A DNA stretch of 64,000 bases from Hydrolagus colliei (lineage: Eukaryota), in NCBI GenBank assembly GCA_035084275.1, contig CM068742.1, forward strand, positions 124,000,001 through 124,064,000. Direction: 5' to 3'. Below, in pieces: positions 11,798-61,535 of this stretch. The first letter of the stretch is position 1, and each line of letters begins with the position of its first letter. A program made the translations under genes and the position numbers. A model generated the notes under the pieces. That model was not told the origin of the DNA and made no database searches. It was given only the letters and a program-made list of their open reading frames with translations.

Positions 11798-11949
11798 TAA
11801 ACTTCACTTCTATCAATGCAACACTCCCCCAACAGCCTAGCTGAAAAGGCCTGTGTCCACATTCACTGTGAACCTCATAATACACAGGAATTGCAGCAAG
11901 GCAGTACTTAAAACAATGGTAAGAAGCGAAATGACCTATTATTGGGTCA

Positions 11950-17700: not shown

Positions 17701-18760
17701 TATGAAGACAACGTTGCAAATTTGGACTTGAAGTCGTAAAGAAGTGGAGATTGAGAATGGACACAGTCCAGAAAAGCTTGAAGGATTCTATGGTTGTAAA
17801 TGGGTTAATGGAAATCATGATTACACAACAGATGCATACTTAACAGGCAGTCAATGATAATAGTTTACAATTAAATCATACAATGTTATATTGATAGCAG
17901 GAGATAATTTGAACCCAGCACAGGATGTCCTCCCGACATGAAAGGCACTCTATAAATGTAACTTTTTTGTTGCTGCTGATGTCATGTAGTCTAAGCTGAC
18001 ATTCGAATGCGGTGCTGGGAGGTTTTGGATTGCCATTGGTGCCATCCATTTGATGAGGGGTTAAAAACAAGGTGCAGCATGCTTTTTCAGTTGAACATTC
18101 AAGATCCATGATAAAAAGAGAAGGCAGTTTCTCCTGGTGTCTGGCCGACAATCTCCCAAATAAAAGCAATAATTTGCTTCTCGTGGGATATTGGTGTGTA
18201 CAATTGTGCTACAATTACCTTCAGATAGTCACACGATTTCACAATAAATCCTGTGAAACGTTTTAGGATGTCCTCCCAATGTGAAATTCGGCATACCAAA
18301 TGAAAAGATTATTATTCTTTGTTCGAATGCCATTGTAGTTGAAAGATTTCCAAAGTGTTCTGGTTCTGCTATTGTAACTCACTCAGAAAATTCAATAAAT
18401 TGTGAGTGTCCATTATAACCGTCCAGATTGTTACAGTTTTCTATTGCAGTGTATATATTGGACACAGAATGGAAATCCTTGTTGAATGTGCACAAATTTT
18501 AGAGGGAATCGCATTTTTATCGACAGTTTATTTGTGCACTTGAGATACTTATTCTAATTGATAGGGCAGGAGGAAGCTCATTTGGAGCATAAACGCCAGC
18601 ACCGACCATTTGGGCCATATGACTGTTTCTGTTCTGCATATTCTAATGTATATTCTCCCAACCAAAAAGGCACTATATCATTGTAAACTGTTCTGTTTCG
18701 TGTAATGTCCAAGTTAGAAATAACAAAAATTATTTGTTTTGGTCTGTAATCTCTTTGCAG

Positions 18761-18946
18761 AACTCTTTACGTATGCTTAATAAGGCCATTGCTGGATTTG
18801 TGGTAATGTCAGAAGAGATGGAAAAAATATACAACAGCTTTATAAACAACCAGGTTCCAACTCTGTGGGCTAATGCAGCTTATCCATCACTCAAGCCCCT
18901 GGCAGGATGGGTGAAAGACTTTTTTCTGAGGACTGATTTCATACAG
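18761..18946 (+). CDS. dnah6: DNAH6 internal exon
   Basis: ctttgcAG / GTgaga; 186 nt; [62 protein letters not shown] with the YPSLKPL dynein C-terminal motif. Confidence 0.96.
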
Positions 18947-19807
18947 GTGAGACATGTTGACATCCATTCTTGAAGAACAATCAACCATTCTTACAGTTCT
19001 AAATGCATTAAAAGCTTTGATGATGTTTATAGTTTTGTTTAAACTATAGTCATCACTTCCTCAGCTTAGAAAGCCATCTTTGATCAATCCATCTCTGACC
19101 TGCTACTGTCCAAATGTCTGACATTTCACCTCACAATTATACTCTGAGTTCTTCCAATATTCCTGGTTTAAGACCCTCCCGTCAGGTTGCCAAATAGTTC
19201 ACAGCATCAAGACATTCCCGGTCAGTTGGTTGTGGTGGTGATTGTCTTTCCAGATGGTTAAAGTGTTGGTATTGTATAAGGATGAGTTTATATTATTTTC
19301 TGTTGTAGAAAGGCTTCTCGTTCTGTTATATATTAATAACTATACATGAGCAAATAAATTGAAGATTTCAGGAACTGGAAGCCTCTGCACTAATTCCAAC
19401 TTCAAGTTTGCAGTTGAATTTATACAATTCACTAAGAAACAGAAGTAGTTTGATTTTTATTTATATTGTTAGATTGATAACTTAAACATTTTCATTGATT
19501 GCTTCTGAGATTGAGGAATACAGATTTCAAAGCTTGCACTTCCATGGAGCTTCTAATGGATATTTTTCTCCCTTCAAGCTTGTTAGGTTTAGGATTGTAT
19601 AATTACGTTGAATGACCCTGATGCCTTTTTCTTTATATTTTGTGAGCCGGGTTATTCAATTCAAGCTCATTTTACACAAATGCAGGAGAAACTGTATCCG
19701 AAACTCACAAATCTGTGTTTAGAAATTATTCATACACAACACACATTGTACTTCCAAACATATTGTACTATTCTACAAAGAGGAAAGGACATCGCTAACA
19801 CTAAATA

Positions 19808-20659
19808 CAGGTACCCCATCCCAACCGCGGCTTCATCAACCGCGAAACTCACACATCCACGGTTTGCTAAATGCGACAACCCTTACCACGGCTTACAACC
19901 CTTGCTTATCCACGGGTTCTAACACTAACACTAGCGTTTAGCACTAGGACCCAGTTGCATCAATCAGCTTTGATATGCTTCGCGATAGCGTATAGCGCTT
20001 GGACCCAGTTGCGATGTTGCAATCAACCAGCGACAACGCTTCTCTCTTAGGATTAAGGTAAATAACATGAATTCATTGTCGCTTCTCTGCATCCCTCTCT
20101 TTCTGTGTGTAAGTGTATCTCTCTCTGACTCACCTCTCTATTTCACCTTCTCTTCCCCCCAGCCCCCCCCCCCCCCCACCCCACTCCCTCTCTGTCTGTA
20201 TCAGTCAGTCACTCAGACAGCCCCCTCAACCCTCCGTGTCACCACCACATCTTCTCCGTTGATTTATTTCCCTCCCTCTCTCTGTAGATCAGTCAGACAG
20301 CCCCCCCAGCCCTCCGTGTCACCCCGCACCCTCCATCTCTCTCTCTATCTCTCTGTAGATCAGTCAGTCAGACAGCCTCGCGGATTGCTGCAGATCCAGG
20401 CAGCCTATGCGCCCAAACTTACTCCCCCTATCCCCATGTATATTATAAATGTATGTTTTTTTTGAGTTTAGTTCTACAAAACGCAAACTTACTTCCCCTA
20501 TCCTCAATGTTTCCCATAGGGCATTTGCCAACCACGAAAAAGCAAACGTACTCCACCTATGCTCATGTTTCCCATAGGGCCCTGCATTTTCCAACAGCGA
20601 TTTTACCAACCGCAGAGGTTCAGAGGAACATGTTCCCTGTGGTTGGGGAGGCATACCTG
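19808..20659. mobile_element. Tc1/mariner (Tigger/pogo-like) non-autonomous element
   Basis: TA on both flanks; imperfect 23-bp TIRs CAGGTACCCCATCCCAACCGCGG and CTGTGGTTGGGGAGGCATACCTG; no transposase ORF; internal short duplications. Confidence 0.8.
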
Positions 20660-20882
20660 TATAGTAGTAATAATAATATTTTCAAAATACAGTAAGTAGC
20701 TTTGAACTTCCAAATGTTGTGGTTGTCTTGAAGCAGAAGAGTTCAGAGCAGTTTCTCCTCTTACTATATTGATTGGGAATGATTCCTGGCTCAGAAAAAC
20801 AAGGTGGCAGTCAAGGAAACAAGACACTAAACATAAACTAACATCATTGTGGTATGTGCTGAAGTAGTAAATATGTTAAAAG

Positions 20883-22072
20883 TAGGGTCCGTCGATACGG
20901 AAATTTTCCGATTTAGATATATCGATGGGCCCATATCGAGATATACCAATATATCGATATTTTGGGGGTTTTCGTACTGCGCATGCGCGCGCGTCGCGAG
21001 GTGCGCACGCATTCGGAGGTGCACGCGAATTTGGGGCCTATCTCCTCAGGAGGTAAATATCTCTCTCTCTCTCTGTGTCTCTCACACTCACTCTCTCCAT
21101 CTCTGTGTTTTTCTGTCCGTGTCTCTCTCCTCTCTCACATCATCCCCATCTCCATCCATCCATCCATCCACCCACCCACCCACCCATCTGTATATTATCA
21201 CATCCACCCCGTCTCCCCCCCACCCGTCTGCACCCCCCCTGCCGCCGTCAGTCTCTCCCCCCACCCCATCCCTCTCTCCCCACCCCCACGCCGCTGTCCC
21301 TCTCTCCCCCCATCCCCCCCGCCGCAGGCCCTCTATCCCCCCACCACCCCCGCTGCCGTCCCTCTCTCCACCCAACCTCCCCCCCACCGCCGTCCCTCTA
21401 TTCCCCCACCACCCCCGCCGCCGTCCCTCTCTCCCCCACCCCCCGCCGCCATTCCTATCCCCCCTCCCCCACGCCACCGTCCCTCTCTCTCCCCCACCAC
21501 CGCTGTCGTCCCTCCCCACCCCCCCGCCGTCTCTCTCCCCCGCCCCCCCGTCTCTCTCCCCCTGACACTCCCCCCACCGTCTCTCTCCCCCCCACCCCCC
21601 CGCCGTCTCTCTCCCCCCACCCACCCCCCCGCTGTCTCTCTCCCCTCCCTCACCCCCCCCGCCGTCTCTCTTCCCCCCATACCCCCTCCGCCGTCTCTCT
21701 CCCCACAACCCCCCCCCCCCCACCGTCTCTCTCTCCACCCCACCCCCCCTGCCGTCTCTCTCCCCCCACCCCCCACCCCCCGCCGTCTCTCTCCCCCCAT
21801 ACCCCCCCAGCCGTCTCTCTCCCCCACCCCTCACCCCTTGTATACCTGGATATTGTATTCGAGGACTATGAATACAATATGGCAGCTTACACCTCGGTCT
21901 GTGCATTGTGTATAGAGATGAGCATTCTGGATCTTGTAGTTCATTGCGCGCGCATTCCGAATTTTTTTTCGATATATCGACTTTTACGATATATCGATAT
22001 TTTGAAAATGCCTATATCGGCATATTGATATGAAAATTATATTGGATATAACCGATATATCGCCGGACCCTA
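20883..22072 (+). mobile_element. hAT-type non-autonomous DNA transposon with internal C-rich minisatellite
   Basis: TIRs TAGGGTCCGTCGATA and TATCGCCGGACCCTA; 8-bp TSD GTTAAAAG/GTTAAAAA; clustered subterminal CGATAT/ATATCG motifs; CpG-rich. Confidence 0.9.
21205..21838 (+). repeat. C-rich minisatellite (~20-22 bp unit, CCCCGCCGTCTCTCTCCCCCA-like)
   Basis: About 30 degenerate tandem units seen directly; source of the Pro-rich and Gly-rich ORFs. Confidence 0.9.
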
Positions 22073-22475
22073 GTTAAAAACATATTTAACAAACATAGAA
22101 AAACGAAAGAGTAGTATAAAAATGGAATTCATGAGTTGCTGATGCAATGCCCTGCTCTCAGATACATCCTATTAATCATCATTTACCTCCACTTCCAGTC
22201 AAAGAATATTTTACCCCAGTCACTGAGCAGCACTGTTCAAATGTAGTGAACTACATAAAACCCCACTGTATGTGCTGGGAGTACTAATTCAACTGAATTG
22301 GATCATAGAAACTGTAATGCTTCTCAGCAGAAGAAAGTATCAGTCTTGTACAACTCTTGTTTAATAAATGCTGTATATTTAAACATGATATAATAGCTAG
22401 CTGTACAAGTGAAATGAATATTGTTATGCATTGACCTTTACTTCAGTATTTGACTGCATTTGCCATATTTTACAG

Positions 22476-22548
22476 ACCTGGATCAAAAAAGGCCTCCCCA
22501 AGAGCTACTGGATTTCTGGATTCTTCTTTCCTCAGGGCTTTCTGACAG
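22476..22548 (+). CDS. dnah6: DNAH6 internal exon
   Basis: tttacAG / GTgtga; 73 nt; [24 protein letters not shown](G) with the [13 protein letters not shown] dynein motif. Confidence 0.95.
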
Positions 22549-22984
22549 GTGTGACCAAACAGAATTCTCAAAAAATTATGTTAATTAACTTGAGCTTGTT
22601 TACAAATTTTGCTTGTAATTCAATGTTCTGTTACTCAGTGAGCATAAAGCTGTTGATGTTAAATCCATAGTTACAGTGGCTGTAAAGTGCTTTGAGATGC
22701 CTCAAAGATATGGTAAGGCACTATATCAAATCAAAGATTATTACTATTCAATTTTGATGTTTAACTCTGTGCTTTTTTTTATGGTCAGTCAGGTGTTTGA
22801 CACATCTGGAAACCAATCACAATGCCTAAGGGTATCCAAACCAACTGAGAATTTCATGCATCCCATCACTGAAGTGATATACGTCTGGCGTATATAAATC
22901 CAAGTTGTTGTTATTATTTACAGAGCAGAGTTGGAATGAAATCACCAAATGCCATCTTGGCAGCAGACAATGCAAGGAGACACT

Positions 22985-23640
22985 GCAGGGAGATTCCACT
23001 CTGGACAGTGTCCCAGAATGCTTAATAATGATGGAGCCTGATAGCGAGCCAGGGGGAGGGGGAAGGTGGCCATAGAGATGGCTGAAGAGGAAGGTTTTCA
23101 GGCATAACCTGAAAACGGGGAAAGAGGGGGCAAAGCGAAGGCTTGGAATGTAGAGGCTGAAGACATGGCCTCCAATGGTGGAGCAGAGGATTCGAAGGAC
23201 AAGGCAGCAGTTTGTGCTGTGAGGAGAGAGACGGTTGGAGAGATAAGGAGGTGCCAAGGAGTTTGGTGTGGTTAAGAATACAGGCGGTAAAATTTTGATT
23301 GAGTTACATTTTGTGAATAGTGGAGGAGGAGAGACTGGCGGGGAGGGTGTTTGAATAGTCCACCTGAGAGATAACGAAGGTGTGGACAAGGGTTTCAGCA
23401 GTTTGTTGAGTGAGGCATTATCAGAGGTGCGCAATGTGGTGGAGGTATAGGAAAGCGGTCTTGGCCAGGGATCGGATGTGGGATATGAAGAATAACTGGG
23501 GATCGAACCTGATGCCTAAGATACGCACGGGTTCAGAGAGTTTTAAGGACAGATCGGGTAGATTGGCAAGGCCTGAACTGCAGAGCAGAAGATGTCAATG
23601 AGCGTCAAAGCGTATCGCTTCCATCTTGTTGATGTTTTAC
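22985..23640 (-). mobile_element. Degenerate L2 LINE fragment
   Basis: LAPPYLS, STIGGHVFS, FRLCLKTFLF motifs in the minus-strand ORF. Confidence 0.75.
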
Positions 23641-24036
23641 TGCAAGTTTGCGCTCATCCAGTCAAATGGTATATAAAAATACAACTTGTCGCTGTTGTAC
23701 TAGATTGTCCACAGTTGCAGATGGCCTGCAAATGTGGAACTCTTAGGTTTGGGTATCCTTCTACATGTTGATGGGTTTCATAAATTAGCTGGCTGACCAA
23801 AAAAAAAGGGAAGGAGCATGGTATTGGGAATAGGATGGATGGTTTATTGGAGGAGCCAATGGTAAGAAAACCTGCTGAATGGCTGCCTAGTTTAAAATAT
23901 AAATTTGAAAGAAAAAGAGAATAATGTTGACAGACTGTTCTCAATTTGTAAGGTTGGAGCTGCCAATAGTAAAGAATCATAACATGTGCCATTGTGACAA
24001 AAATAGCACTGGAATTTTGTTCAATCTGTGTTTCAG

Positions 24037-24188
24037 GCACACTTCAGAACCATGCAAGGAAATACAATTTACCAATTGATGAGCTTCAGTTCCGTTACAA
24101 TATTATTCCTATGTATCTGGATGCAGCAGAAATAGCTGAGGTTATGAAAACCTTAGGATTTGGGCAAAAACATCCAATGGAACAGGAG
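24037..24188 (+). CDS. dnah6: DNAH6 internal exon
   Basis: tttcAG / GTaatt; 152 nt; (G)TLQNHARKYNLPIDELQFRYNIIPMYLDAAEIAEVMKTLGFGQKHPMEQE; phase fits both neighbours. Confidence 0.95.
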
Positions 24189-24984
24189 GTAATTTCACCT
24201 TGGCATTGAGAAGCATTCTTATGTTTACTAGGCTAGGAACACATCTGAGCACCTGATAATATTTTTAGTTGGTGACATATTGTGCAATAAAGGAAATTTG
24301 ATGCTGAGTAATATAATACATTATACCACCTAATACATTTCAGAATAAAAAAATAAAACTTAATTCCCTTATGCCCCTCCAATAATGCTAAGCAAGACCA
24401 GGAAGTATTCAGGTTGAATTACAACCATTTCTTAATTAGTGATAAAACTGGTGAGGGTAATTCTAAATTTCTTTGCTTATGATAAAAATCATAATGAGAA
24501 AATATCTTATTTACAATTTATTTCAGAGTAATAATGAACCAGGTTTGCTCATTTTAATGTGCACAGATCTGTCAAATGCAGTTCCACATTGCTGCCCATC
24601 TTGTGGTCTGAACCCAATCTCACAGGCACAGAGGACCCTGACAGATGCCAGCAAACTTATTATCATGTCTGTCATTCCCTGGAGGGAGATGGTTCCAGAT
24701 GAATTAGAGTTTTATACAGGAATAGACAGAACAAAATGTCAAACCTTTAAAATCCCTTTTCACAGAAACATGACTACATATTAAATTAAATGTCATTTAA
24801 AAAAAATACAATACAGCGAAATAAAAATAAAAGAATTGCTGGTAAGGAATAACATATTGATTTGTACTTTAAAGAGAGAGCTAGATTTGTGTCTCATTGT
24901 GCTTCTTTATTACAACTTTTTTTTCTTTTGCTTAAAATAATTGTTTTTTTCATACTAAAATACACTTTACACTTCCTTCTCTCG

Positions 24985-25255
24985 CCCGCCAATGGTAGGT
25001 CAGGGCTCATGGAGCAGGCGAAAGCCTGCTGAACGGATGGGGCAGGCAAGTTGGTAAGAGTTTAGAAGGTCACAGATGTAGGGCAGGGCGAGGTTGTGGA
25101 GGACTAAATGTGAGGACCAGGATTTAGAATTGGATCCTCTGGATGATGGGGAGCCAATGGAGTCGAGTGAGGAAGGGGGAGGTGTAGTCACAGAATTTGG
25201 AACGGTAGAGGACACTGGCTGCAGAGTTCTGGATCATCTGCAACCTGTGCAGGTC
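24985..25255 (-). mobile_element. L2 LINE fragment
   Basis: LHRLQMIQNSAASVL...LTRLHWLPIIQRIQF. Confidence 0.82.
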
Positions 25256-26546
25256 AACGTCAAAGCTCTCACAAATAATTACTGGAAATTTGTAGAAAAA
25301 TACAGCTAGCATTTCCATTATAATAAAAAAAGACAAAATTGTCCAAAATATGTTTATTATAGTGATACAAAGATACCAATTCCCTGTTCTTTACATAATA
25401 ATGCTCATTTGTATTTGGGCAATTTCCTCCCAGCAAACTCAGTCTTCTGTCCAAATAAACAGGTATGTTCTCCTTTCAGTGCTGGAGATAAATCAATGGC
25501 AGCTGTTCAATTATTCAGTTTGTTCCCAGTACATCATCATTTAAATAAAAATCCATTGTTTCTAATCCGTCCTATACATAAAATAATGTTAAAACTCACT
25601 ACCTCTGACAGATCTGGAGGGTTGAAGACAATCGGGTTCACGATCAGTGTCATGCATTCCCCTCTATGCCTTATTTTTCCTCACAGTCCCCATCTCGCTC
25701 AAAAGTTCTTGCTTTCATGCTCCTTTAGTCTTTCAGACAAGTACTCAACAGCCATAGTATCTTCTCCACAACTACAATAACCAAAACATTTAATTGATAG
25801 AGTGCCTTTCAGATCGGGATGCCTGACCTAAGCCCTAGTGCTCCTTTGTTCTTCTTGGCTGTTCAACCAGCAAGGCCGGAGTAAGAGACCACCAGAGCTT
25901 CAGTAACAGCTATTAATTCAGCCAGGCTTGCAATTTCCTCGCCCTTTTTGACAGATTGTGCAACACATATGTACTTTATTACATTACATCTTGCTCTGTT
26001 AATATGAAGCAAATGCTCATGTTATAATCATCTTAGCTTGAATATAGCTGTGCATCCACTTTTCATTGCCACAGCACATCAATCAATATCATCCTCACAC
26101 AGTGCTGTATTTGGAAGAGAAGACAACCTTTTCCAGTTGTATAACAATATTCCAGGAGTTATCATCATAGCTCCTAATTCTTGCACTTGAAAGCACAAGA
26201 ATAGAGTGAGGAGATCATTCTTGATAATTAAGGAATGGAAGGCCTTAAATTCCACCTCATCTCAGCCCAAGACTATTTTGTCTTGCAACTTGAGGTTTGG
26301 CAAAATTGTGGCAGATTCTCAAATTTGGAAGCTAATTCTGTTTAGGAGCTGCAACATTCATTCCAAATTATGGCTAAATGTTCTGCAATTCTGTGTTAAA
26401 TGTTTAACATCATATTGTCCTATAGCCTAAGACAAGCTGGAATTCCAGGCCTTTAAGGATATTTTAACTAGGAATATTGTAGTTTTTGATGTTCTAACAA
26501 TATATTCATTGGTCTTTTATCACTATTAATATTACTTTTCCATAAG

Positions 26547-26769
26547 CTGCCCTCGCCTAAAGATGGCGTCCTGGTCCACGGTATGTACATGGATGCGTTT
26601 CGTTGGGATAATAAACACATGGTGGTAGATGATGAGCTGCCAAGAGTGATGAATTCACCTTTACCAGTTGTGCACTTTGAGCCTTCCCAGAACTATGTCC
26701 CAGAAACTTTTCTATACCAGGCACCACTGTACAAAACAGGGGAGAGAGCAGGAACCCTCTCAACAACAG
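26547..26769 (+). CDS. dnah6: DNAH6 penultimate coding exon
   Basis: ttttccataAG / GTacag; 223 nt; [21 protein letters not shown]...[11 protein letters not shown]...[15 protein letters not shown](G). Confidence 0.94.
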
Positions 26770-27011
26770 GTACAGTGAAAACAGTAATCCTTATATTTGA
26801 CAAAGTGCTTATAATGTTGAAATATTTTAGGCAAAGGTGGTGGTCAATTTGTGTCCCATAAGGTTCCCACAAACAGTCAGGTAAATGACTAATTTATTTG
26901 GGAAAATTATGGTCAGGGTACCAGAAGTAAATCCCTTCTCATTTTGAATAGAGTCATGGGATCTTTAACACTCAATTCAATAGACAAACTGAACCTTGGT
27001 TTAATGTCTCA

Positions 27012-47042: not shown

Positions 47043-47564
47043 TCATGCAAAATCCTTAGACACGGCTTCTATGAAATTAGGGGCGGCCATTAGAATGGCG
47101 AATGTACAAACTATAGAAAAAACCGTGAACGCCACAAGGCAGAGTCTGTCTACCACGGCTGCCGCAAACTTCCACTCGCTGGAGATGGCCTCTCCCTGGT
47201 CCTGGTCTCTGAAGCGCTTGGCGATGAACTGCACCTCCTCGAGGATCTTCAGGATCTCTGGGGAGCTCTCTGGGGGAGGGCTGCTCTGAACCGTGCCGTG
47301 GTCCTCGGTGGTGGAGGAGGTGATTCGTCCACACATGACCCCCGAGTCACTGCTAGGGGGGCAGCAGGGGTTCTCCATGGTGTGGTAGCCAAAGTAGATC
47401 ATGTTGCCATTGATGGTCTGCTGTGCAGAGAGCCCGCTCATCTCCACACTGCTGATGCTCTGTGGTTGCTGCCGGCTGTACCTGTAAGGGATGTCACTCT
47501 TGCCTTCGCCGGGCTTCTTCATTCGCAGGAACCAGGCGCACCAGTTCAACAGGACCACTCTTAC
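47043..47564 (-). CDS. chrna8: Neuronal nicotinic acetylcholine receptor alpha7-subfamily subunit, most likely alpha8; last coding exon (cytoplasmic loop and TM4)
   Basis: tttcccacAG acceptor; [20 protein letters not shown]...[13 protein letters not shown]...[44 protein letters not shown] then TGA. The loop segment [17 protein letters not shown] resembles chicken alpha8 as I recall it, rather than alpha7; alpha11 not excluded without a tree. Confidence 0.85.
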
Positions 47565-48304
47565 CTGTGGGAAACACAAAGCCATGACAAACATTCAGGT
47601 GGATTGCTCAGCCTCACCACAATGTCATAATACCAATTATAATAATCCCTGCATTTCATACAACACCTTATCAAGTCATAAAGATGTCTCAAAACGCTTC
47701 ACAAAATATATTGTAAAGTCAATTAACTGTACATTTTGCGGGTGAAAATATAATTTTGTGGGCAAAATGCATCAGCCAATCGCTCACAACAATGTCCCAC
47801 AAACTGCCATGGTATGGGAAAGCAATATTGCTGCATTAGTCCATGAGCAGTGAAAAACTACACTAATAGACCCATAAAATAGAACTCCCACTCATATTAA
47901 TAATAATCACATTTGGTATAGCCCTTTTCATTTGAGGAGAATGTCCCAAAGGGCATCGCAGGATCCATTGTAAAGTGGAATGATTGTGTTTCTGTTGGTG
48001 AACGCAGCAGCCAATTTGACCACAGCAATGTCCCACAAATAGCCATGAAGTGAATGATTGTTAACTGGGACATTGGAAGAAACTGTTTAATATTCACCTG
48101 AACAGGCAGACTTGGCCTTGGTTTAACATTTCATCTGTCGACATCTAATATCGGCATCTTTAAGATTGCAACACACCTCAACACTGCTTTTGCATGTCCT
48201 AGTGCCATGACTACAACACCAACATGACCTAGCCTTGTCAGGCCTTCCTCTGGGCTCTGGCTTGTGCATTCTGAAATATTTCAAAATGCACTAATAATAA
48301 AAAT

Positions 48305-48512
48305 AACAACACGCCTAATAATAATCCCTGAAAAAACCCACGATAATTAATTGATCATTTCAATCCACAACTGTTTGTGGGACGATGCTGTGCGCAATTG
48401 GCTGCTGTATTTCTCCCACAGTCAATTCACTTTACAGTATATTCTGTGAAGTGCTTTGAGATATCTAGAAGACGTGAAAAGCGCTATATCAAATGCATGG
48501 ATTATTATTATT
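48305..48512 (+). mobile_element. 5'-truncated SINE copy
   Basis: Deu-like core and tail ending GATTATTATTATT. Confidence 0.8.
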
Positions 48513-50159
48513 GTTTCCTCTTTAAAGTTCAAGCTTGAGCAAAATTATGAACCAAAGCACTACAGAGGTTAATTTAAAAATGTCCATGTTACACTCGAGA
48601 CAGCTGTTGAGAAATACCCTTCGTCCACCTCTATCTGATAAAGTAATAAATGATATTGCTTCACAAGTTCATACTCCTTAACTTTCCCTTGAATTAAACA
48701 TTGATCAGTCTGCTGCAATATTCAGAATGAGCCCAAAAATGAGAAAACCTATAAGGATGCATTAAAAAATAATGCTGGTCTTTCTCTGGTTGACTGATCT
48801 AGATGTGGCTGCTCAGCATTTTAAAGTGTTCTCATCAAACTGCAAGGCACATATTTAATTAGATCTGCTGGGCATGGCAACCTGTAATATATTAAAGAGT
48901 CATGTTGTGTGATCATCAAGTCACTAACTATCCTCGGAAAACCTAGCCAGGGATGTCCTTTAAGGGAAGAAAGTCAGATTCCATCTTCGCAATAAAGATC
49001 TTGAAAAGACTTTGTGGGTGTTATAGGATGTATTTCTATGCTTCACATGCTGCAAGGCGATTGCATCGTAAGCATTGCTTGGTGCCTAAATTTGAATGTG
49101 GGGTTGAGATACATGGGAATAAGAATGGGGGGAGGGCAGGGAGGGTGTGTGGTCAAAGGGGCGTGACTTGAAGGAGGCAAGAGAGGTGAAGGGAATGTGT
49201 GTTGGAGTTCCAAAGTGTGGGGGCTAAGAGGCTGAAGGCCTGACCACCAATGGTGGGGCGCGCCAGGTGAGGACATGGAGCAGGCCGGAGCCTGCTGAGC
49301 GGAAGGAGCAGACGGTTGATAAAGGTTTACTTATGGATGGAATATGGCTTTACAAAAGTGGAATATTTATTGCAGGTATTGGTTCAATTCCAGCAGTACC
49401 TCAATGCACTCTCTGGGATTCCCAAACCAGGCTCTTGCCAAACCATGCTTAGTATTCTGCAGGATTGAGTAAGGAAGGTGAGACCCTCAGGGGAAGGTGC
49501 ACATTTCATTTGGGGTATGGAAATTTCCATGTGAAGATAGCATACATATGTGGAACTCTCAGACTGATTTGGATACCCTTAAGCATAGTGAGTGGTTTCC
49601 ACATGTGTCAGACACCCAAATGAGGCTACAGAACAACATCTGACAGAGAGACTCTGGACAGAGAGTGTGGGGTCCACTTTCTGCCAGAAATCTCACATCA
49701 ATATTAAAAAGATGTAGAAGCAGATTCCTCTGCATTACTTATTTTTACAGTCATCCACAAATTATTTTTATCGTGGATTAGTGTGTGTGCAAATGAACTA
49801 CAATTAATGTATATCGATAATGTATTACATGATGAATCAAACTAATATATATATGGTTTGCCCTGAAGATAGGGCAAAGGTCTTTCAAATTTAATGAACA
49901 ATATGGTAATTCTGCTGCTGTTGAAAGGTATTATTCCTTGACCCTCAGCTCTGACAAAGTGAAAATGAAACCAATCAATTTGGTTTTAGTCACAGTCAAA
50001 ATCTCTACCAAACTACTGTATTGACACAAAATGCACAACAGCCCATCATGCAATGACTGTACTTATAGGCAACAGCTGCACCAATTTTACATCACCCAGG
50101 TCCCACCTCATAGCTTACTTTGTCTTGATGATGTGATCATCAAGGCACTCTTAATAAAA

Positions 50160-50387
50160 AATAATTCTTGCGTTTGATATGGTGTTTTTTAAGACTTCTA
50201 GACATCTCAAAGCTTCTCACATAATATACTGTAAAGTGAATTGATTGAAAATGTTGTGGGCGAAATGCAAAATTGCACACAGCAATATCCCACAAACAGT
50301 TGTGGATTGAAGTGGCCAATTCATTATTATTAAAACATTTTTAGGGATTATTAGTCCTGTGGAGTAAGGAAATTTGCCCAAGGTTTG
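50160..50387 (-). mobile_element. 5'-truncated SINE copy
   Basis: Tail and core match; head absent. Confidence 0.78.
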
Positions 50388-52282
50388 GAATGACAAAGGT
50401 GAGAAGCAATTCTATCCAGCTTCTTGAAGAGTAATATCATGTGCATCTAAATTTTACTGGTCTTTGGCAGCATTTACGAATGTGCTGAGATTCTAAATTC
50501 AGTCTCGATTTTTAATTACCGGTATAGAATTAAAGAATCATGCAGATAGAAGGAGGTCATTTGGCCCTTGTGCCTGTGCAACTACTTTGAAAGAGCTATC
50601 CAATTAGACTCCCTCCCCCACTTTCCCCACAGCCTTGTAACTTTTTCCTTTTCAAGTCTGTATCCAATAACCTTTTGAAAGTTATTATTCTCCACCACCC
50701 CCACCCCAGGTGCTGTGTTTCATCATTCCACAGAGGAGTTTGGGTCCTTCTCAACATACTTTATACTTTGCAGCAATAAGATTTTTTTTCCTGTATCAAC
50801 TCCTGTACTAGCTCCTCTCTCTGATTGAGTGATCTTTTATATAATCATTAATAATAATCCTAATACTGTAATAATATAATCTCTGCATTTAATTTAGTGC
50901 CTTATCATGTCAAGACGTCTCATAGCACTTCACATGATATACTGTAAAGTGGTATATCATTGGTGCGTATTTTGCAGGTGATCTGTACCAAAGGAATGCC
51001 TTGCCATTGTAAAACCTAAGTTAGGCACAGTGAATAAAAGTTATATGGGAGTTATTGAGTGATTCAGAAGGCATAGACAGTAGTTTCAGTGAAATATCTT
51101 GCAATATATTTTCATTCTTTTTATCCCAAAGGGACAAATCTGCTTCACGAGAGCATGATATGAGACCATATCATTCTTCAAAATTTTCTTATAGAGTTGC
51201 TTCTTGCTATTTCTTTGGTAATATCTCCAGGACATGCAAGATGTCTTCAGAAAATTCCTCTATGTTAATGGACTTTGGAGATATATAATGGGGAGATGGT
51301 TTCCGAGGTCCCAATTATTGCAACACAATCCTTTTGTAAATATTGTGAATTAGATCTCACTGAGGGCCTAACTCAACTTTGCTCAACATCTGCGGAAAGA
51401 TGTTTTGCTGAACTTTCCCTCAGGAGATTAAATAAGTAGAATGTATGACAGGGTAGATATCACCTGCCGTACAGAAGGATATGGACTGAATATAAATTTG
51501 TGAAACCTTTCCTCTGTTAAGCAGCAACGTTCTTCTCCTCACCTCACCTCATTTCAGAACAAATGTTGAGGTGCTCAGGTACAGTACAGTAGTTGCTGTT
51601 TGCAAGTTTTGCAAAACAAGTAATGCAGTGACATCTAGATTATTCAAATGTTCCATGGAAAATAAGTCACACATCAAGGCTGCACAATTCCAGACAGATT
51701 CTGAGAAAATGTACAACTCGCAATGACCGTTCACTGTACTAAAGAATACATCCAGGCTGGGTGATACATATGCGTCTAGTCATGGATATTTCCCTGTATT
51801 CTCCTGGCAGGGATACACCCTGCTTGTTTAATCCAAGAAAATATCTAACATAACTCAGTGTAAGTCAAGGCATGGGTTTATGCATTGAGGTACTGCTGGA
51901 GTTTATCCGACTATTGTACCTGCCATTCTGAATGGTGTCTGGCAAGCACCTACCTATGTTCTCAAATGAGGAATGTTGGCAAACAGACATTTCGTGAAGC
52001 TATATCCACCCCTAAAGTGCTAGCAACAGATCAATGTAAGCTGGAGACTTCCTCCCTGTTTACCATAAATTCACCTCATTGCTTGCGGTCAATGGAGCAT
52101 GATAGTGATGAAGAGTGTGCGTGGAACCTGGTATGGTTAACAACATTAGCTGGAGAATACAGGGCAAGTGGTTGGGAAAGTCAAATATTGAAGTGGCAAA
52201 GGAATGAATTAGAGGGATTTTAGCAGCAGGGAGTGGTGAAGTAAGGCATTTAATGGGTGATAATGTGGAAATGGATAAAGGC

Positions 52283-52603
52283 TATAATAATAATAATAAT
52301 CCTTGCATTTGATTTTATGCCTTATCACATCTTTAAGACATCTTAAAGCATTTCACAGAATATACTGTATATTTTGTGGACCAAAAAAGGGAGCTAACTG
52401 CACACAGGTGTCTCTCGAACAGTTGTGGATTTATTATTTATTTTTGCAGGAATTATTACCCCCAGAAAAGCGATCCACCAATCTACTAAAAACTGAGTGC
52501 CTACTTACTGCTAGGTAAACAAGTATGTGGAGTAACAAAACTTGCCCTACATTTACAGTCAAATCAAACCCAGTTCTCTAACCACGGAGTTATAAGATGC
52601 CAC
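52283..52603 (-). mobile_element. SINE copy (long form)
   Basis: Tail, core, internal CTACTTACTGCTAGGTAAACA block and degenerate head. Confidence 0.8.
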
Positions 52604-54190
52604 TGTCCAATGGACTAAATTTAAATGATTTAAAGATTAAAGGCAAATTATTTTGAGAATTACTCCGAGAATCCTTCAGCACTTGACCAAATGTAATTTG
52701 TGAAAAGTCATTTCATTTAAAGTCAATGGTTAAGGAAAATCTGCATAAAATGCACACCTTTCATTTCCCTAAGTATATTGTCATGTTTCACCATTTTTAC
52801 TCTTGTTCACTTTGTCACTTAGTGGATTTGAATTAACTATCAATTCTTCCATAGACACCTGGAAAGATTAGAACAAAGAACAATTCTTGAAGGGTGTCTT
52901 AAATCAGCTGGAAACAAATTCACATTTACCTGACAGATCACTAAGGAGCAATTATTACTATTTACTTTCACATATTAAATACAGTACAGTAAATTATGTT
53001 GCTGTTCCAGATGAAAGGTTCTCTCTCTAATGGTACATTACTTGATCGATGTGGATTGAATTAGATCAAGAAGGATGGCAGGGGATTTAGGAATAAAAGA
53101 TTCTCCCACATAAGTGATGAATTGCCAATTAGGAAATTAAATTTAATTGAGAACAAAGAGATTCTGAAATCTCTGAACCACTGTGTTGATCAAGCCAAAG
53201 CATTGGCGATCAGATTAAAACAAATAAATTTAAAACTGAGAGTCAGAGGAGAAAGAACAAGTGGGGCTAAAGCAACCACCAGGAGCTTAACCGGTAGTAC
53301 ATTGTACACTCACACATTCCATGCACGGTATGCGGAGTTACTAATCCTTAGAATATAAACTTGTTTATCCTGATGCATCTTGTTTGTGTATCCCACATGA
53401 TGTGATCTGTCAATTATTATTATAACAATTAGCACCTTGTTGTTTGTGTCTATCTTTTATATTACTGTCAATAAAGATAGTTTAAAATCTGGCTTAAAGT
53501 ATCTGGCCATCAAAGAGAAACCCATCCGATGGTCATTTTGGGGAGAATTGCTTTCTGTGACTCTATGTTTGTCATATCACCATCCCAGTACATTCACTGA
53601 CACATGCAGAAATGCCGTTAACTTCTCTCCAGAGTTTGGCAGCAATATCTATTACCATTGCAGCGCATTGAAATACTGCAAATATTGAGTTTCCAGCTAA
53701 GCAATATTCTCCCACGCTCACACCAATGTCTGCTCCAGCTTAGCTCTTTTACTGATGCCGATTACAATCGGGGCTAAGATGTAATTGCATAAAGTTCATT
53801 ATGTGAGCAGTAACTCAGCATAAAAGCCTTTTGGGAACTGTTGCATAACAATTTTGTATTGAGAATATGAGTGAACAGTGAAACACTCTTCCTTTATCTC
53901 TTCACCTTGTCCCTTCCTTCCCTATCTTCAGGTCGTGCCTGAAGAGCTTCCTATTCGCCTGTGCCTAGAGTCACGTAACCCTCCCCCTCACGGCTCGGTT
54001 GGACAAATTGGCTGAATTATTTGCCTTCAAAAATACACAGCCTCTACAGTGAATCCTGTGAAGCATTTTGAGACATTCTCCTGACATGAAAGGTACTATA
54101 TCAAATGCAAATATTATTATTATAATTAATAATTCTAGATTATAATATTATGAATTGGAAACTCAAGAGTAACCATGCTCCATAAATACA

Positions 54191-54547
54191 CAATAATCCT
54201 TGCATTTGATATATTGCCTTACCATGTCCTTGAGACATCTCAAAGCGCTTCACGGAATATACTGTGACCTCATATATTTGCGGGCAAAATATAGCAGTTA
54301 CTTGTGCACTGCAGTGTCCCAAAAAATGTTGTGAATTGAGTGACCAAATTATTATTATTTTATTTGCTAATTTATTTATTTTTGAAAGGATTTTTGTCCT
54401 GGAAAAGGGATCTGCCAATCGAATAACAACCGGTTTCCTAGGTAAACAAATGGAAGTGGAGTAAAGAAACTTCTTCTGTCTGGGAATCAAACCCAGGTCC
54501 TCTTGCTGGCAAGGTGAGAGCTCTAACCAATACACTACAGGATTCTA
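54191..54547 (-). mobile_element. SINE copy (long form)
   Basis: Tail-core-head match. Confidence 0.8.
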
Positions 54548-56083
54548 TTTATCTCATATGTATTATTTTACATGTAGACAAAAGTTCAGGTCCTAAGAAT
54601 TGATTGCCAATAAAAAAATCTATAAAGGGCCCAAAATTCCGGTATAAGAACAATTTGCATTTATATAGCACTGTTCATGCAGGATAGTGACTCAAAGCTT
54701 TTCTTTAACAAAACGTCAGGAATCATCAGACCGGCTTTTCAAACTGGCATTTCCTTTTGAATTTTTTTTTATTGATCTTGGTAGTGAACCATGCAATTAT
54801 GGACACAAATCCGATTACCTCAGCAACTAATCTGTGAACGTTGCTTTCAAACCCAGCTTCAAACATTGTGCTTCTCATCTACCTGCACAACATCCCAGGA
54901 GATTCCTTTGACATGTACATCACATTATCCAATGCCCCTGAATCTTTTTAACTTGGGACTTGGCGCTTGTGGTTTAGGCTGCACTTCAGTGCTGCAATGT
55001 CAGAGATGCCATTCTTGAGACGAGACTTTGAACCAAGTTTATTTTTGCCTGTTTACTTGGATATTAAAGATCCCATCAAAATATTTTTTAAAAACAGTTA
55101 GTTTGTTCCTTGTTTTAGACAACAATGTTTCAGATGCAATTAATCATTTACCCTTTGGTAGTTTATGGGACACTGATGCATGTAAATTGGTTGCCACATT
55201 TGCTTACAACTACGCAGTCATTACACTTTACCAAAACTCTTTGAGATATTCCGAGTTGATGAGGCACTGTTTCAATTGCGAGCATTATTATTCATTTTCA
55301 GTAGTTTACCTATTGCCTTTTTGAAACTCTTTATGTGCTACAGAAAACCACACAGGAGGAAATCTCGCTTGTAAGTCGAGTGCTCTAACCAATAATTAAA
55401 AGGACTCCACTGCTGTTTAAAACAAGTTTCTGCACCCATCAATTACAGCTCTTCAATATAAATATGAGTTTGAAAGGATTCATCAGTTAATCATAACCTT
55501 ATTAGCCTCAACAATCAGATTAAGTGTGTCAGAGGTGAAGGAGACATTTTATTTGTGAAGCCTCATTAACCTAAATGAATTAAACAAGTGACTGAGGCTT
55601 TTGAGCTCACTAAACACCTCTAAAAACCTGACTTCTATTCCATCCATTAGTACAATACAATTATACGAGATTCCCTTGGTGTTATTAATATCTTATGCAA
55701 GTATGAAACATTTCAATTCACCACACTTTTGAATCTTTACTTACTCTAGAATCTGGAATCCTTAATATTGACTATATATATATAAATGCATCAATTGCTC
55801 AATACAAAGAAATTAAGAACTGAATTATATTAAAAATTCCATTTGCTTTTGAGCAAGCATTTCCAGCATTTTCAGTTGGGTGAGAGCATCTTTTTTTACT
55901 TGTCTCATGTGCGGGCGATGCTGAGAAAGGCCAAAGTTTATATCTGCCAATTGAATCTGTTTATATCTGCTAGCACCAAGCTCTGCGACCACATCACTCC
56001 CACCCTCGCCCGGCTCCATTGGCTCTCCATCCCCCAGAGGATCGAATTCAAGATTCTCATCCTCACTATTAAGGCTATTCACA

Positions 56084-56721
56084 GCCATATTGTATTCATA
56101 GTCCTCGAATACAATATACAGGTTTGCAAGGGGTGGGCGGGGGGAAGGGGAGAGAGACGGCTGGGTGGGGGGAGGGAGGGGGAGAGAGACGGCTGGGGGG
56201 GGGGGAGGTGGAGAGAGATGGCTGCTGGGGGGGGGAGGGGGAGAGAGATGGCTGGGGTGGAGGAGGAGAGACGGCTTGGGGGGGCGCGGAGGGGGAGAGA
56301 GACGGCTGGGGTGTGCGGTGGGGGGAGAGAGATGGCAGGTGGGGGTGGGTGGGAGAGAGGGACGGCAGCGGGGGGGCGGAGGAGAGAGGGATGGTGGATG
56401 GGGGTGGGGGGGGTGGGGGCAGAGACGGGGTGGATGTGATATTTTACAGATAGATAGAGATGGGGGGGATGTGAGAGAGGAGAGAGACACAGAGACACAG
56501 ACAGAAAAACACAGAGATGGAGAGAGTGAGTGCGAGAGACACAGAGAGAGAAAGATATTTACCTCCTGAGGAGACAGGCCCCGAATGCGCGCGCACCCCG
56601 AATGCGTGCGCCGTGCGCGCATGCGCAGTACGAAAAACCCGAAATATCGATATTTTGGTATATCTCGATATGAGCCCATCGATATATCTAAATCGGAAAA
56701 TTGCCATATCGACGGACCCTA
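56084..56721 (-). mobile_element. Second, truncated copy of the hAT element
   Basis: Reverse-complement match to 20883-21883, including the TIR (TATCGACGGACCCTA ending 56721), subterminal motifs and a shorter minisatellite; the other end is missing. Confidence 0.88.
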
Positions 56722-56958
56722 CTGCAAAGTGAATTCACTGTACTTTTTGTGGGCAAAATGCAGCAGCTAATTACGCACAGCAGTGTTTCACAAACAGTGG
56801 TGGATTAAAATGATCAATTTTCTTATTCTTTTTTTTGAGGGATTATTATTAGGTATGTAGAGTAAGGAAACTTGCCCAAGGTTTTGCCCTGCCTGAAATT
56901 GAACCCAGGTCTCTTTCTTGTAAGGTGAGTGCTCTAACCACTGAACTACTGGACTCCA
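56722..56958 (-). mobile_element. SINE copy cut by the hAT element and abutting the palindromic element
   Basis: Core and head present; tail replaced by the hAT TIR at 56721. Confidence 0.82.
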
Positions 56959-56960
56959 TA

Positions 56961-57218
56961 AACAGAACACAAAATACTACAGATGCTGGGAATTGGAAAC
57001 AAAAACAAAAGTTGCTGGGGAAACTCAGTAGGTCAGGCAGAATCCATGGAGAAAGGAAAAAGAGTCAACGTTTTGGGTCTACAACCCTACATCAGAACAA
57101 AGGGTTCTGATGAACGAAGGGTTCTGATGAAGGGTGTAGACCCGAAACGTTGACTCTTTTTCCTTTCTCCTTGGATGCGGCCTGACCTGCTGGGTTTCCC
57201 CAGCAACTTTGTTTTTGT
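56961..57218. mobile_element. Palindromic Penelope-like-element-derived insertion
   Basis: ~100-bp inverted arms (56998-57098 vs 57121-57219); 14-bp TSD TACTGGACTCCATA at 56947-56960 and 57219-57232; hammerhead motif in the arms. Confidence 0.8.
57116..57159 (+). ncRNA. Minimal type I hammerhead ribozyme motif
   Basis: CUGAUGA (57124-57130), extra A, stem II GGGU-GUAG-ACCC, GAAA (57144-57147), palindromic ACGU stem III, GUU triplet ending 57151, stem I GAAGGGUU/GACUCUUU. Activity untested. Confidence 0.7.
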
Positions 57219-58233
57219 TACTGGACTCCATATGCTGTTGAAATTTTTTTTCCAATGTTCTTCATATTGAGCAATATCTACTCCCATCATAAAACATATT
57301 TAAAAAAACTCCCATTATATACCATTCATTTGCATGGAAAATATATAAATATTAAGACAATTGGATTTGGGGGCATCAAACTTGAGATTTTGGGACATTG
57401 TGAGTAAAACCATACATAAAATCGATTACTTCATCCAGACCAATCTTGTGATGTTGTGAATATTCATCAATACTGGGTAAAATATATGACTTGAAACTGA
57501 ACTGTTACCATTCAAAATTTAACTATATATTCAGTAGCTTCTATCTTCCATTCATTCCCTTTCGTCGTTTAAGCTACACCCCTTACCATACCTCTTTGAC
57601 CTTGCTTTGACCCACCTCTCACCCCACCTCAGCTTCAGTACATAACCAGAATTGTCAAGAGCTTTGGGACATCTGCCCGATGTGAAAAGGGCTATATACA
57701 GTACTGTATGTCTATATTGTATTGTTTTTTGCTCCTGCTTTGAAATTCTTTGCCTTTGCAGCATTTCAGAAACAATCTGAAATGATGCAGAGATGGAGGA
57801 TTTCAAAGCAGGGACAAAATAAAATGCATTATAGTTTGTCTAAGTTGATAGCACTCTCAGCCTCTATCAGATATCATTGTGCTGAAACTGGTGTGTGGTG
57901 TGGGGGAGAATAGGAATGAAATTATTTATCTCTCGAATGAGACATGCATGGGTCATTATCAAATCCCCAACCTCTTCATCTGTTTTCTGGAAGATGTTAA
58001 AAACCTACTGAAACTATTCACAGCGAGTTTTTATAGCTTATAGCTGTCTATGGAACCTTTACTGGTGTAACTGACTGCCAGAAAATTCAATGCAATGCGC
58101 TGTTATAAATATGCAAGTTCTTTCTTTATCTTATGAATAACAAGAAAACATCAGGTGATTTGCTAGTTGTTTGATATCCTTTCCTGCAATCTATTAAACA
58201 ACAGTGTTTCTTGGTATTTTATTGGTGACTTAC

Positions 58234-58343
58234 CCACTTGGGCATGTTCCCCGCATGAGGATCGTGATGATGAAACTGAAGAACTAGCACAGTGACAACC
58301 ACAGACAGACCCACGATAAACATTGTGCTTGCGAAGTACTGAG
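58234..58343 (-). CDS. chrna8: Same receptor, penultimate coding exon (TM3)
   Basis: gtgtttcAG / GTAAGT; 110 nt, the size of the equivalent alpha7-family exon; (A)[36 protein letters not shown]; joins in phase 0 to the last exon. Missed by the ORF track. Confidence 0.9.
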
Positions 58344-58671
58344 CTGAAACACAAGACAACACAAAGTATTATTGTCAGGGTGATACTGAATATGGCAGCA
58401 ATTCTCAAAACCTTTCCTCTTCATCTTTCCTCTCATGAATAACTTAAAGAAACAACTGCATTGGATGAAATATTCTATTATGAGTTCACTTCCAATCAAT
58501 TCCTCCAGACATTACAAACGCAGTAAGAAGAGATGACCAGGGCACTGGTATGTGTAAAAAGATTTAACCTTGTAACACTAGCACAGATTTTCCTTCGAAG
58601 AAGAGTTCCCACTGCCTGTATCCCTTGAAAAAACACAATTATAAATAGGCATCATGACCAATTGTAATATA

Positions 58672-59729
58672 CAGTAAAAGCCTGTTTATCCGGCACCCTC
58701 AGGACCTGGCCAGTGTAATTAAACTGCATGTCGCATATTCGGGCGGCCAGCTGCTGAAAATGCACCACAAAAAAATTACCTTTTTTTAAACATATCATAT
58801 TAATAATAGACTAAATAATAACAGAATATTGTATGAATACTTACCAATAGAGCAATATATTTTGTTTACTTTCTATAAACAGCACACAATCACAAAGCAA
58901 ACTTCTACAATGGTTTACTTCTTAAAGGGCAGGCATTGTCAGTTTTTCCTCCTTTTTTTTTCTATCTTTCTCTCCTTCCCCCCTCTCTCTTTCACACACA
59001 CACTCAGTCAGTCTGGCATCTCAGTGGCTCCAAACTCAACCCACCTCCACTCTTTCCCCCCTCCACTCTTTCCTCCCTCCACTTTTCCCCCTCCCCCCTT
59101 TCCCTCTCTCCCCCTCCCTCTCTCTCCTTCTCCCACCCCCACCAAAACAGTGTATAAACCCACGATACTGGCAGGCTACAAAGGCCTGTANNNNNNNNNN
59201 NNNNNNNNNNNNNNNNNNNNNNNNNNNNNNNNNNNNNNNNNNNNNNNNNNNNNNNNNNNNNNNNNNNNNNNNNNNNNNNNNNNNNNNNNNNNNNNNNNNN
59301 NNNNNNNNNNNNNNNNNNNNNNNNNNNNNNNNNNNNNNNNNNNNNNNNNNNNNNNNNNNNNNNNNNNNNNNNNNNNNNNNNNNNNNNNNNNNNNNNNNNN
59401 NNNNNNNNNNNNNNNNNNNNNNNNNNNNNNNGGGAGAGATAGACAGGAAGGAAAGAGAGGGAGAGAGAGCAAGAAAAAGAAAAAGGAGAGAGAGAAAAGG
59501 GAGAGGAAGAGAAAAAACAGTGCCCCTTTAAGAAGAAAGACTGGAAGTGTACTACATGCAGCATTCAGAACTAATCGTACTGTACTCTAGTGCAAAATTC
59601 GACTCATTAAATGCACCACAGCGATTGTGCCGGATAAGATCCGGTTAATCGAATGGGTACCATTTTTTTGAGGTGCCGGTTATACAGAAGTTACGGTTGA
59701 TTGGGTCATGGATAAACAGGCTTTTACTG
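58672..59729 (+). mobile_element. Tigger/pogo-like non-autonomous element spanning the assembly gap
   Basis: Perfect 20-bp TIRs CAGTAAAAGCCTGTTTATCC / GGATAAACAGGCTTTTACTG with TA on both flanks. Confidence 0.85.
59191..59431. other. Assembly gap (run of N)
   Basis: Seen directly. Confidence 1.
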
Positions 59730-60700
59730 TACTATAGTAAACTTTACAGTCATATGGTGAATGACTAAACCATGAGGTCACATTAGAGAGTACTTTGGTA
59801 ATGACGGAAGGGTTGTAGTTTAGGATTGCATATTACAATACAACAACAAATTAGAAGAATTTCATTTGGCACTGGATAGGTGAGGATTTGCACCCTTAAT
59901 GCAATACAATTGACACTTATATGTAATTTGATGTATTTTACTTTGGGAGGATGTCACAAAGTGTTTGCCAATTCTGGCTGGGCATGGGAGCTGAGGGTAT
60001 CTTTGACTGATAGCGAGGTTGAAGTTGTTCATTTTGAGGTATACGGTATCTCGAAAGATGGTCAGGTCGACGTGATAGGCCACTGTATGAAATGCTAGGA
60101 TTATTATTATTATTACAACTACTCCTACCAAAAATCAGTAAGCCTTTGTTTGTCTCACTGGTGTCTGGTGTTTTACTTTCTAACACAGCTCATTGTATGA
60201 TTTTGCAACTGCTCTATGATCTCAATTAAAACTACATACCACAGCTGGATAAGTGCACTTGTAGCTGTTATTATGGTCAAACGGCTTGTGCAGATATTTA
60301 ACAAGCGTGATACACGCTCTACTGAACTTGCTTTTTTGGTTGCCTGCTGGCTTTATATAGAGGTGAAATAAATTTCTGTCACTGAGCAATATTGACCTCT
60401 TGTGAGTTTTGCTTAGTGTTACTTTGGAAATCTCTTTAAAGAAGGGGTAATAAACATGAGGGATTGTGCTGCCCATTGTATCATGTTATTATTTTTTTAA
60501 AGAACAATGGGGGGAAATTTGCAGAATGCATTGGCTGAATAAACCATTGAATAATTGAATAAACTGGCCAGGGCACTCAGAGAAACTATCTTCCCTTTTT
60601 GGAATAGTGTCATCGATTTTCTTTTCCAATTTCCAATGAAGTTTCTGAAACCCTTCACTGAATGATTGACTATTACACCCCAATAATGGTCTTTCTATAC

Positions 60701-60885
60701 CAAAACTGGAGATCACTGAGAAACCTCAGCAGGTCAGGCAGTATCCATGGAGAAAGGAAAGCAGGTCAACCATTTGGGTCAATGACCTTTTGTCAGAACC
60801 CAAATGATGTTTACTCACTTTCCTTTCTCCATAGATGCTGCTTAACCAGCTGAGTGTTCTCAGCGATCTCTGTTTTTGTTTCAGA
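60701..60885. mobile_element. Older degenerate copy of the same palindromic element
   Basis: CTCAGCAGGTCAGGCAGTATCCATGGAGAAAGGAAA ... TTTCCTTTCTCCATAGATGCTGCTTAACCAGCTGAG inverted arms, homologous to 56998-57219; hammerhead core decayed. Confidence 0.75.
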
Positions 60886-61131
60886 TTTTTGGCAAATATC
60901 CAACAGCAGCAAAATTACCTTTCATATCAGGAGGGCATCACAAGATGCTGAACAGTCAGTGGTTGATGTTCAACTGAAGAAAGTTAGCTCTCATCCAGGA
61001 CTTGATGACTGACAGACATTCTATCACGACAGCAGTGGTCCTGGAGTCAAGGATGGAGGCAGAGAGATACAGTTGTGTATCTTCCGCATACATGTGGAAC
61101 TTGACCACACTTGGAGTCAATTTCCACATGT

Positions 61132-61535
61132 TGGGTCCTGTAGCTCAGAGGTAAGAGAACTTGCCTTGCAAGCGAGAGACCTGGGGTTCGATTAACGGCT
61201 TGGCAATACCCTGTGAAGTACAGTACCCTTACTCCAGATGCCTGGTAATAATCCCTGAAAAAAAATTGGTCTTTGCATTTGATGTAGCGATTTTCACATC
61301 TTCTAGATGTCTCAAAGTGCTTCACAGAATATACTGTAAAGTGAATTGACTGTGTATATCTGGGCGAAATGCGGCAGCCAATTGCCCATAGCAGCGTCCC
61401 ACAAACAGCTGGATTGAAAAATTACCAATTTATTATATTCTTTTTGAGGGATTATTATCAGGCATCTAGAGTAAGGAAACTTGCCCAAGATTTTGCCCTG
61501 CCTGGAATCGAACCCAGGTCTCTCGCTTGTAAGAC
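61132..61535. mobile_element. Two SINE copies in opposite orientation (+ head ~61132-61270; - copy ~61272-61535)
   Basis: GCAAGCGAGAGACCTGGGGTTCGATT on + and AATCGAACCCAGGTCTCTCGCTTGT further right. Confidence 0.8.

Follow-up and report, generated by a model that had tools for sequence, protein, structure and literature searches.

Minimal hammerhead ribozymes (min-HHRs) of metazoan Penelope-like elements (PLEs) have been described as opposite-strand pairs lying 100-700 bp apart and, predominantly, as solitary motifs tied to truncated PLEs (Cervera & De la Pena 2014, PMC4209133). In the same account, min-HHR monomers do not cleave and dimers cleave at a low level, and dimer cleavage by PLE hammerheads is also cited in a review (PMC6765202). 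An inverted truncated copy together with a one-sided tail of 30-40 bp is presented as the standard layout of PLE insertions (PMC8557442, PMC8969392), and the PLEs of Adineta are reported to carry head-to-head inverted pLTRs, a 31-bp tail, and target-site duplications (TSDs) of 8-10 bp (PMC3846280). For Anolis, the tail is described as the span between two reverse transcriptase start sites, uncleaved RNA as the main template in vitro, ribozyme cleavage as requiring protein, and insertion as having no need of cleavage (PMC11167929). Retrozymes are described as monomers arrayed in tandem, whose hammerheads are canonical or repeated (PMC7229834; bioRxiv 10.64898/2026.07.22.740005). PLEs have been reported from all vertebrate lineages studied, the elephant shark genome included (PMC4350176).

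The window analyzed here, a single 64-kb stretch of chimaera DNA, contains a short ribozyme-bearing insert that is very probably a decayed, extremely 5'-truncated PLE fold-back stub and that is predicted not to cleave host RNA. The coordinates of its parts and of the features around it are collected in Table 1. The host is an alpha7-like nicotinic receptor gene of the - strand, and the insert lies in its last intron (47565-58230). An initial annotation had placed the insert in a chrna8 intron; the intronic position stands, supported by the tblastn exons, and in a 21-row tree the last exon clusters with the bird 511-aa alpha7-like paralogues, a clade that goes by the name of chrna8, apart from mammalian CHRNA7. 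The 98% identity of this exon to its Callorhinchus milii counterpart points to a chimaera or a close relative as the source of the window. Elsewhere in the window, exons for a dynein heavy chain C-terminal domain (PF18199) lie at 9909-26858 (+), tail-to-tail with the receptor gene, and an assembly gap of about 240 N is present inside the receptor gene at about 59190-59430, in a low-complexity stretch.

Table 1. Positions, within the 64-kb window, of the insert, its parts, and the features around it
Feature	Position	Strand	Basis or remark
Last coding exon of the host alpha7-like gene	47043..47564	-	98% over 47564-47046 to Callorhinchus milii P0001 alpha7-like subunit; Pfam PF02932
Older tRNA-derived SINE copy (host repeat)	56720..56957, left edge approximate	-	5' head is the insertion target
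Left target-site duplication	56947..56960	.	SINE head (11 nt) and flank (3 nt)
Tail of left arm, a 3' extension of 37 nt on one side only	56961..56997	-	No right-arm partner
Left arm (inverted copy), on the host pre-mRNA strand; hammerhead broken	56998..57098	-	Gapped alignment
Junction, holding part of a third arm copy (5' end, CUGAUGA only)	57099..57115	+	Repeat search, 94%
Right arm, without tail	57116..57218	+	Repeat search, gapped alignment
Intact minimal type I hammerhead motif	57116..57159	+	Descriptor match; fits the consensus in Fig. S3 of PMC4209133
Right target-site duplication	57219..57232	.	First T also complementary to left arm
Penultimate exon of the host gene (alpha7-like, chrna8 clade)	58231..58344	-	tblastn, 97% to P0001 aa 296-333
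Older second copy of the family: arms head-to-head, junction unlike that of the insert, decayed hammerhead core	60694..60885	.	Repeat search

Both edges of the 258-bp insert carry TACTGGACTCCATA, the exact 14-bp direct repeat that the initial annotation had reported and that was recovered by repeat search; by chance, a repeat like this would be expected at both ends, to within 20 nt, with a probability of about 7e-6. Because the inverted match between the arms continues into T57219, the TSD is 13-14 bp long, and it encloses the whole unit as in PLE insertions. Its length, compared with 8-10 bp in Adineta (PMC3846280), counts against the PLE reading. The duplication begins with 11 nt of sequence from the adjacent SINE, which gave a tRNA-like match in Rfam at 56884-56955 (- strand) and has many copies in the window, and since the TSD copies the head of this SINE, the insertion must be the younger of the two. 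The right copy of the duplication carries a T where nine of the ten other aligned SINE heads show an A, and this repetition of a variant of the SINE head supports a true target-site duplication. None of the 15 listed of 3,477 joints, from 4 of 13 runs, skips the insert in the manner of an empty site, and a flank contig from organism B starts inside the TSD. The SINE is itself abutted by a repeat whose long interior is rich in C and which ends in a palindrome near 56639-56658, giving a nest of three insertions; this repeat is present in two copies, at 56084-56723 and 20881-21883, that are about 74% identical.

Between the duplications lie the two inverted arms of about 100 bp and the partial third copy in the spacer that had been recognized from the outset. 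Without gaps, 57002-57086 and 57132-57216 are 89% complementary, and gapped alignment of 56998-57098 (reversed) with 57120-57218 yields 91 of 102 identical columns; the third copy is located at 57101-57114, inside a 17-bp tandem duplication. The arms have head-to-head polarity, with the inverted copy truncated at its 5' end, and the left arm exceeds the right by 37 nt, a one-ended tail within the 30-40 bp typical of PLE insertions. Measured from C3 of the hammerhead, the 3' end of the arm lies 135 nt away on the left and 95 nt away on the right. The tail, the broken hammerhead of the left arm, and the antisense orientation of the intact motif are features beyond those given in the initial annotation. 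Endonuclease-positive PLE units are likewise described with a head-to-head truncated copy, a tail of 30-40 bp, a TSD around the whole unit, and a short partial-tandem piece (Arkhipova 2013, PMC3846280; Craig 2021, PMC8557442), and the insert differs from the units described there in that no ORF lies between its repeats and both copies are about 100 nt long.

An insert that is short, non-coding, hairpin-forming, and present in high copy might also be a MITE that has captured a PLE end, or a single PLE stub that, once inserted, underwent an inverted duplication locally and by chance. Both possibilities are very unlikely given that the inverted repeats are not terminal, with a 37-nt overhang on one side, that the TSD is 13-14 bp long, and that a second copy in the window has the same polarity with another junction. 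Neither terminal inverted repeats, nor a fixed structure, nor a short superfamily-typical TSD, by which MITEs are recognized, was found for this insert, and the elephant shark mobilome is described as consisting almost entirely of retroelements (PMC4350176).

The intact motif in the right arm agrees letter for letter with the consensus of metazoan PLE min-HHRs (CUGANGAH G..C GAAAN palindrome NU H), down to the extra base that separates 9 from 10.1, the G10.1-C11.1 pair, and the palindromic 15.2-16.2, and neither the left arm nor the second copy conforms to it. Stem I (57116-57123 with 57152-57159) has 8 bp, of which three are G-U; the core consists of CUGAUGA (57124-57130), an extra A at 57131, and GAAA (57144-57147); stem II is GGGU/ACCC, of 4 bp; stem III is the palindrome ACGU; and the cut is predicted to fall 3' of U57151, at a GUU site. 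The type I hammerhead was thus found as originally proposed, with its boxes, stem II, ACGU, and wobbled stem I. A scan with a motif descriptor agrees with this assignment, as the right-arm motif is the sole match in the window and an equally strict match occurred in none of 60 simulated 64-kb sequences (a loose match occurred in two). The Rfam hammerhead model, which the initial annotation had also put forward as a check, did not recover it: across 55000-59000, Rfam gave no hammerhead family at E<=5, the output consisting of the tRNA-like match at the SINE and of miRNA-type hairpin models below their gathering cut-offs, which matched because the element forms a hairpin. The bare CUGANGA..GAAA pattern is not above chance either, with 10 matches against 5.95 expected and 8 of 100 shuffles as high.

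In the left arm, the hammerhead reads CUGAUGU and AAAA, so that A9 is replaced by U at 57089 and G12, the general base of the hammerhead, by A at 57074. Covariation across the three arms, a small set, gave values that 131-317 of 500 shuffles also reach, and the inner three of the eight stem I pairs are the only ones kept in all three. Among the 40 listed of 355 rows of differences from public contigs, none lies at a hammerhead core position. At 57134, one extra T is present in 52-68% of the depth (4/4 runs), as it is in the left arm, and stem II of the right arm therefore likely had 5 bp before a base was lost. The metazoan PLE min-HHRs resemble the insert in the extra base 9/10.1, the G10.1-C11.1 pair, the loopless palindromic CG stem III, and the NUH site (PMC4209133). 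Stem II has 4 bp in the insert (likely 5 bp in most of its relatives) versus 7-8 bp in Schistosoma, and stem I can be drawn to 8 bp versus 4-5 bp (PMC4209133).

It had also been suggested that the insert possibly belongs to a retrozyme-like family, which in its strict form would mean a non-LTR retrozyme that cleaves itself as a dimer into circular RNA monomers. The animal non-LTR retrozymes described to date are, like the insert, short, non-coding, related to PLEs, and equipped with a type I hammerhead and a long TSD (Cervera & De la Pena 2020, PMC7229834; Li et al.). The palindromic stem III of the motif would suit such an element, retrozyme TSDs are given as longer than 4 bp (PMC7229834), and retrozymes have been found in one chondrichthyan (bioRxiv 10.64898/2026.07.22.740005). 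However, where retrozymes are described with head-to-tail monomers, at least two complete ribozymes on the same strand, and circular RNAs, the insert is a head-to-head pair with a one-sided 37-nt tail, one complete motif on the + strand, and none on the - strand. Because it has no tandem monomers and a single intact ribozyme, the insert should not be classed as a retrozyme; its motif is also of the minimal PLE type rather than canonical and is sequestered by a hairpin, and the retrozyme interpretation is accordingly extremely improbable.

This hairpin comprises the whole element, which folds as one long structure (-180.6 kcal/mol, z = -19.8, with none of 200 shuffles as stable). Against this long hairpin, the hammerhead fold of the complete element is at a disadvantage of 43.9 kcal/mol, with pair probabilities of 0.00 for stems I and II; the isolated 44-mer does form both stems. 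Cofolding of two motifs with ViennaRNA did not return the active dimer as the best structure, a result that is given no weight, as tertiary contacts lie outside the model. Relative to the chrna8-like pre-mRNA of the host, the intact motif lies on the antisense strand, and the motif on the sense strand is without A9 and G12. With the intact motif antisense, the sense copy broken, and a hairpin predicted to bury both, action of the hammerhead on chrna8 RNA is unlikely, and we predict that the ribozyme has no activity at this locus. We also considered a regulatory intronic ribozyme acting on chrna8 RNA and rejected it in view of the strand, the broken core, and the folding. The same intron contains a second, unrelated long hairpin at 57715-57830 (-57.6 kcal/mol over 116 nt), with a bin depth of about 20-40x single copy, weak sub-cut-off matches to miRNA models, and no hammerhead boxes; an old palindromic repeat may underlie it, or it may be a hairpin of miRNA-like type.

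The second copy of the family, 3.6 kb from the insert, is about 80% identical to it over 82 columns (66/82) and has the same polarity; no TSD was found for this copy. The abundance of the family was gauged from contigs of 4 of 13 sequencing runs over 55800-61400, as depth relative to the single-copy flank, and in all four runs this summed depth, a rough ratio rather than a copy number, with contigs fitting two places partly skipped, was about 16,000-23,000x at 56994, 700-1,400x at 57179, 300-800x at 57134, and 2-10x at 57107-57116. The arm is thus a very abundant repeat that is commonest at its 3' end, and the junction is near-private. The fall in depth from the 3' end to the hammerhead fits a pattern of 5' truncation, and the 17-bp stutter private to the 258-bp insert could be a partial cause of the low central depth.

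The very high arm depth would also be expected of a dedicated non-autonomous mini-element, either a short RNA beginning at stem I or the whole palindrome, mobilized in trans by PLE protein. The longest arm of each window copy ends no more than a few bases from the stem I 5' edge, an end point that would suit a template with a fixed 5' end; PLE proteins are described as able to act in trans on pLTR-bearing RNA (PMC3846280), and non-autonomous PLE derivatives are known (PMC8557442; bioRxiv 10.64898/2026.07.22.740005). However, the two copies (n = 2) have different junctions, the near-unique center and the steep drop in depth from the 3' end to the hammerhead are what random truncation predicts, and an internal promoter was not identified, all of which makes such a mini-element quite unlikely. 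Of the TSD-flanked, ribozyme-bearing retroelement proposed at the outset, the retro-insertion and the Penelope-type min-HHR therefore hold up, and the dedicated non-autonomous family is the less likely part, given the differing junctions and the near-unique center. With n = 2, the coincidence of arm ends with the stem I edge is only a lead, whether for a family with a fixed start or for stalling.

A link to reverse transcriptase or GIY-YIG proteins was not found: the open frame of the arm drew 0 matches when searched by phmmer among 1.84 billion proteins, two word-indexed protein searches were blank as well, and 0 of 148 window ORFs matched a reverse transcriptase or GIY-YIG Pfam family. The Pfam set comprised 148 of the 188 ORFs of at least 65 aa that passed the low-complexity filter, leaving aside the 38 ORFs of least length and two frames that overlap the last exon, and its only clear matches were the dynein and receptor exons. 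The best Atlas match (score 0.78) was rejected for low recognition and unrelated taxa. The blanks in the protein searches are weak, because little power can be expected of a 34-49-aa query taken from an arm that is decayed and probably non-coding. As the linkage to these proteins was not found, membership in the PLEs rests on architecture and motif. The frame in question is open for 34 codons in the left arm, up to the end of the tail, and is possibly the start of the parent ORF. Both arms also show, downstream of the hammerhead at 57154-57176 (+) and 57040-57064 (-), a pyrimidine tract followed by a near-AG/ATG context resembling a 3' splice site.

Scans of viral contigs (0 and 0) and of prokaryote genomes (0) returned no matches to the element, and nine metagenome-contig loci were treated as chance, with all nine matching over only 19-23 nt. 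The terms shark and Callorhinchus are absent from the text of supplement file 2 of PMC4209133, and none of the papers listed in the literature search, which was conducted on papers rather than on Repbase, Dfam, or the supplements of the preprint reporting one chondrichthyan, concerns this chimaera family.

How a PLE might leave such a stub can be outlined from the Poseidon PLE of Anolis carolinensis (Frangieh 2024, PMC11167929), which is described, like the insert, with two 3' end points that follow a hammerhead at about 100-150 nt and with copies that hold an uncleaved ribozyme. In a comparison with the same element (PMC11167929), the ATG inside CUGAUGA meets a stop after 8 codons in the insert, and the chimaera element may be of either the Poseidon or the Neptune clade. 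We propose that a PLE GIY-YIG endonuclease would have made a staggered cut of 13-14 bp at the head of the tRNA SINE and that reverse transcriptase may then have started at either of two points, about 95 and 135 nt downstream of C3 of the hammerhead, whose spacing of 37-40 nt would account for the tail. Both copies hold sequence on either side of the cleavage site, and the template was therefore probably uncleaved RNA, which would have been copied only up to the 5' edge of the hammerhead before a fold-back or template switch added the inverted copy and the 17-bp stutter. Afterwards, the arms would have diverged by about 10%, with the left-arm ribozyme losing A9 and G12, and in read-through RNA, they are predicted to form the one long hairpin that buries the motif. 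The TSD, arms, 37-nt tail, motif anatomy, strand, repeat depth, and SINE-head target are directly observed, and the cut, the two starts, the truncation at the hammerhead, the switch, and the later decay are the steps that we infer from them.

On this reading, the insert most likely adds a chimaera example to the known PLE fold-back stubs, as an ordinary truncated insertion. The single locus matters little, being a decayed intronic stub with its intact motif on the non-transcribed strand. PLE fold-back stubs of this kind are easily mis-annotated as MITEs or miRNA hairpins, as the matches to Rfam miRNA models illustrate. The family is of modest value: an abundance of very short fold-back insertions in a chimaera genome would allow their junctions to be mapped against the ribozyme, which bears on how PLEs build inverted repeats and on the role of the hammerhead (PMC8557442, PMC11167929). 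It is conceivable, though on balance unlikely, that the 5' ends of the stubs cluster where the hammerhead begins on its 5' side. The cause would be either that the Penelope reverse transcriptase stalls on the folded ribozyme, which sets off the fold-back, or that a hammerhead-headed RNA of ~140 nt is mobilized as a non-autonomous family of its own. If this were true, thousands of chimaera copies would constitute a natural record of the formation of PLE inverted repeats, and the ribozyme would gain a role other than cleavage.
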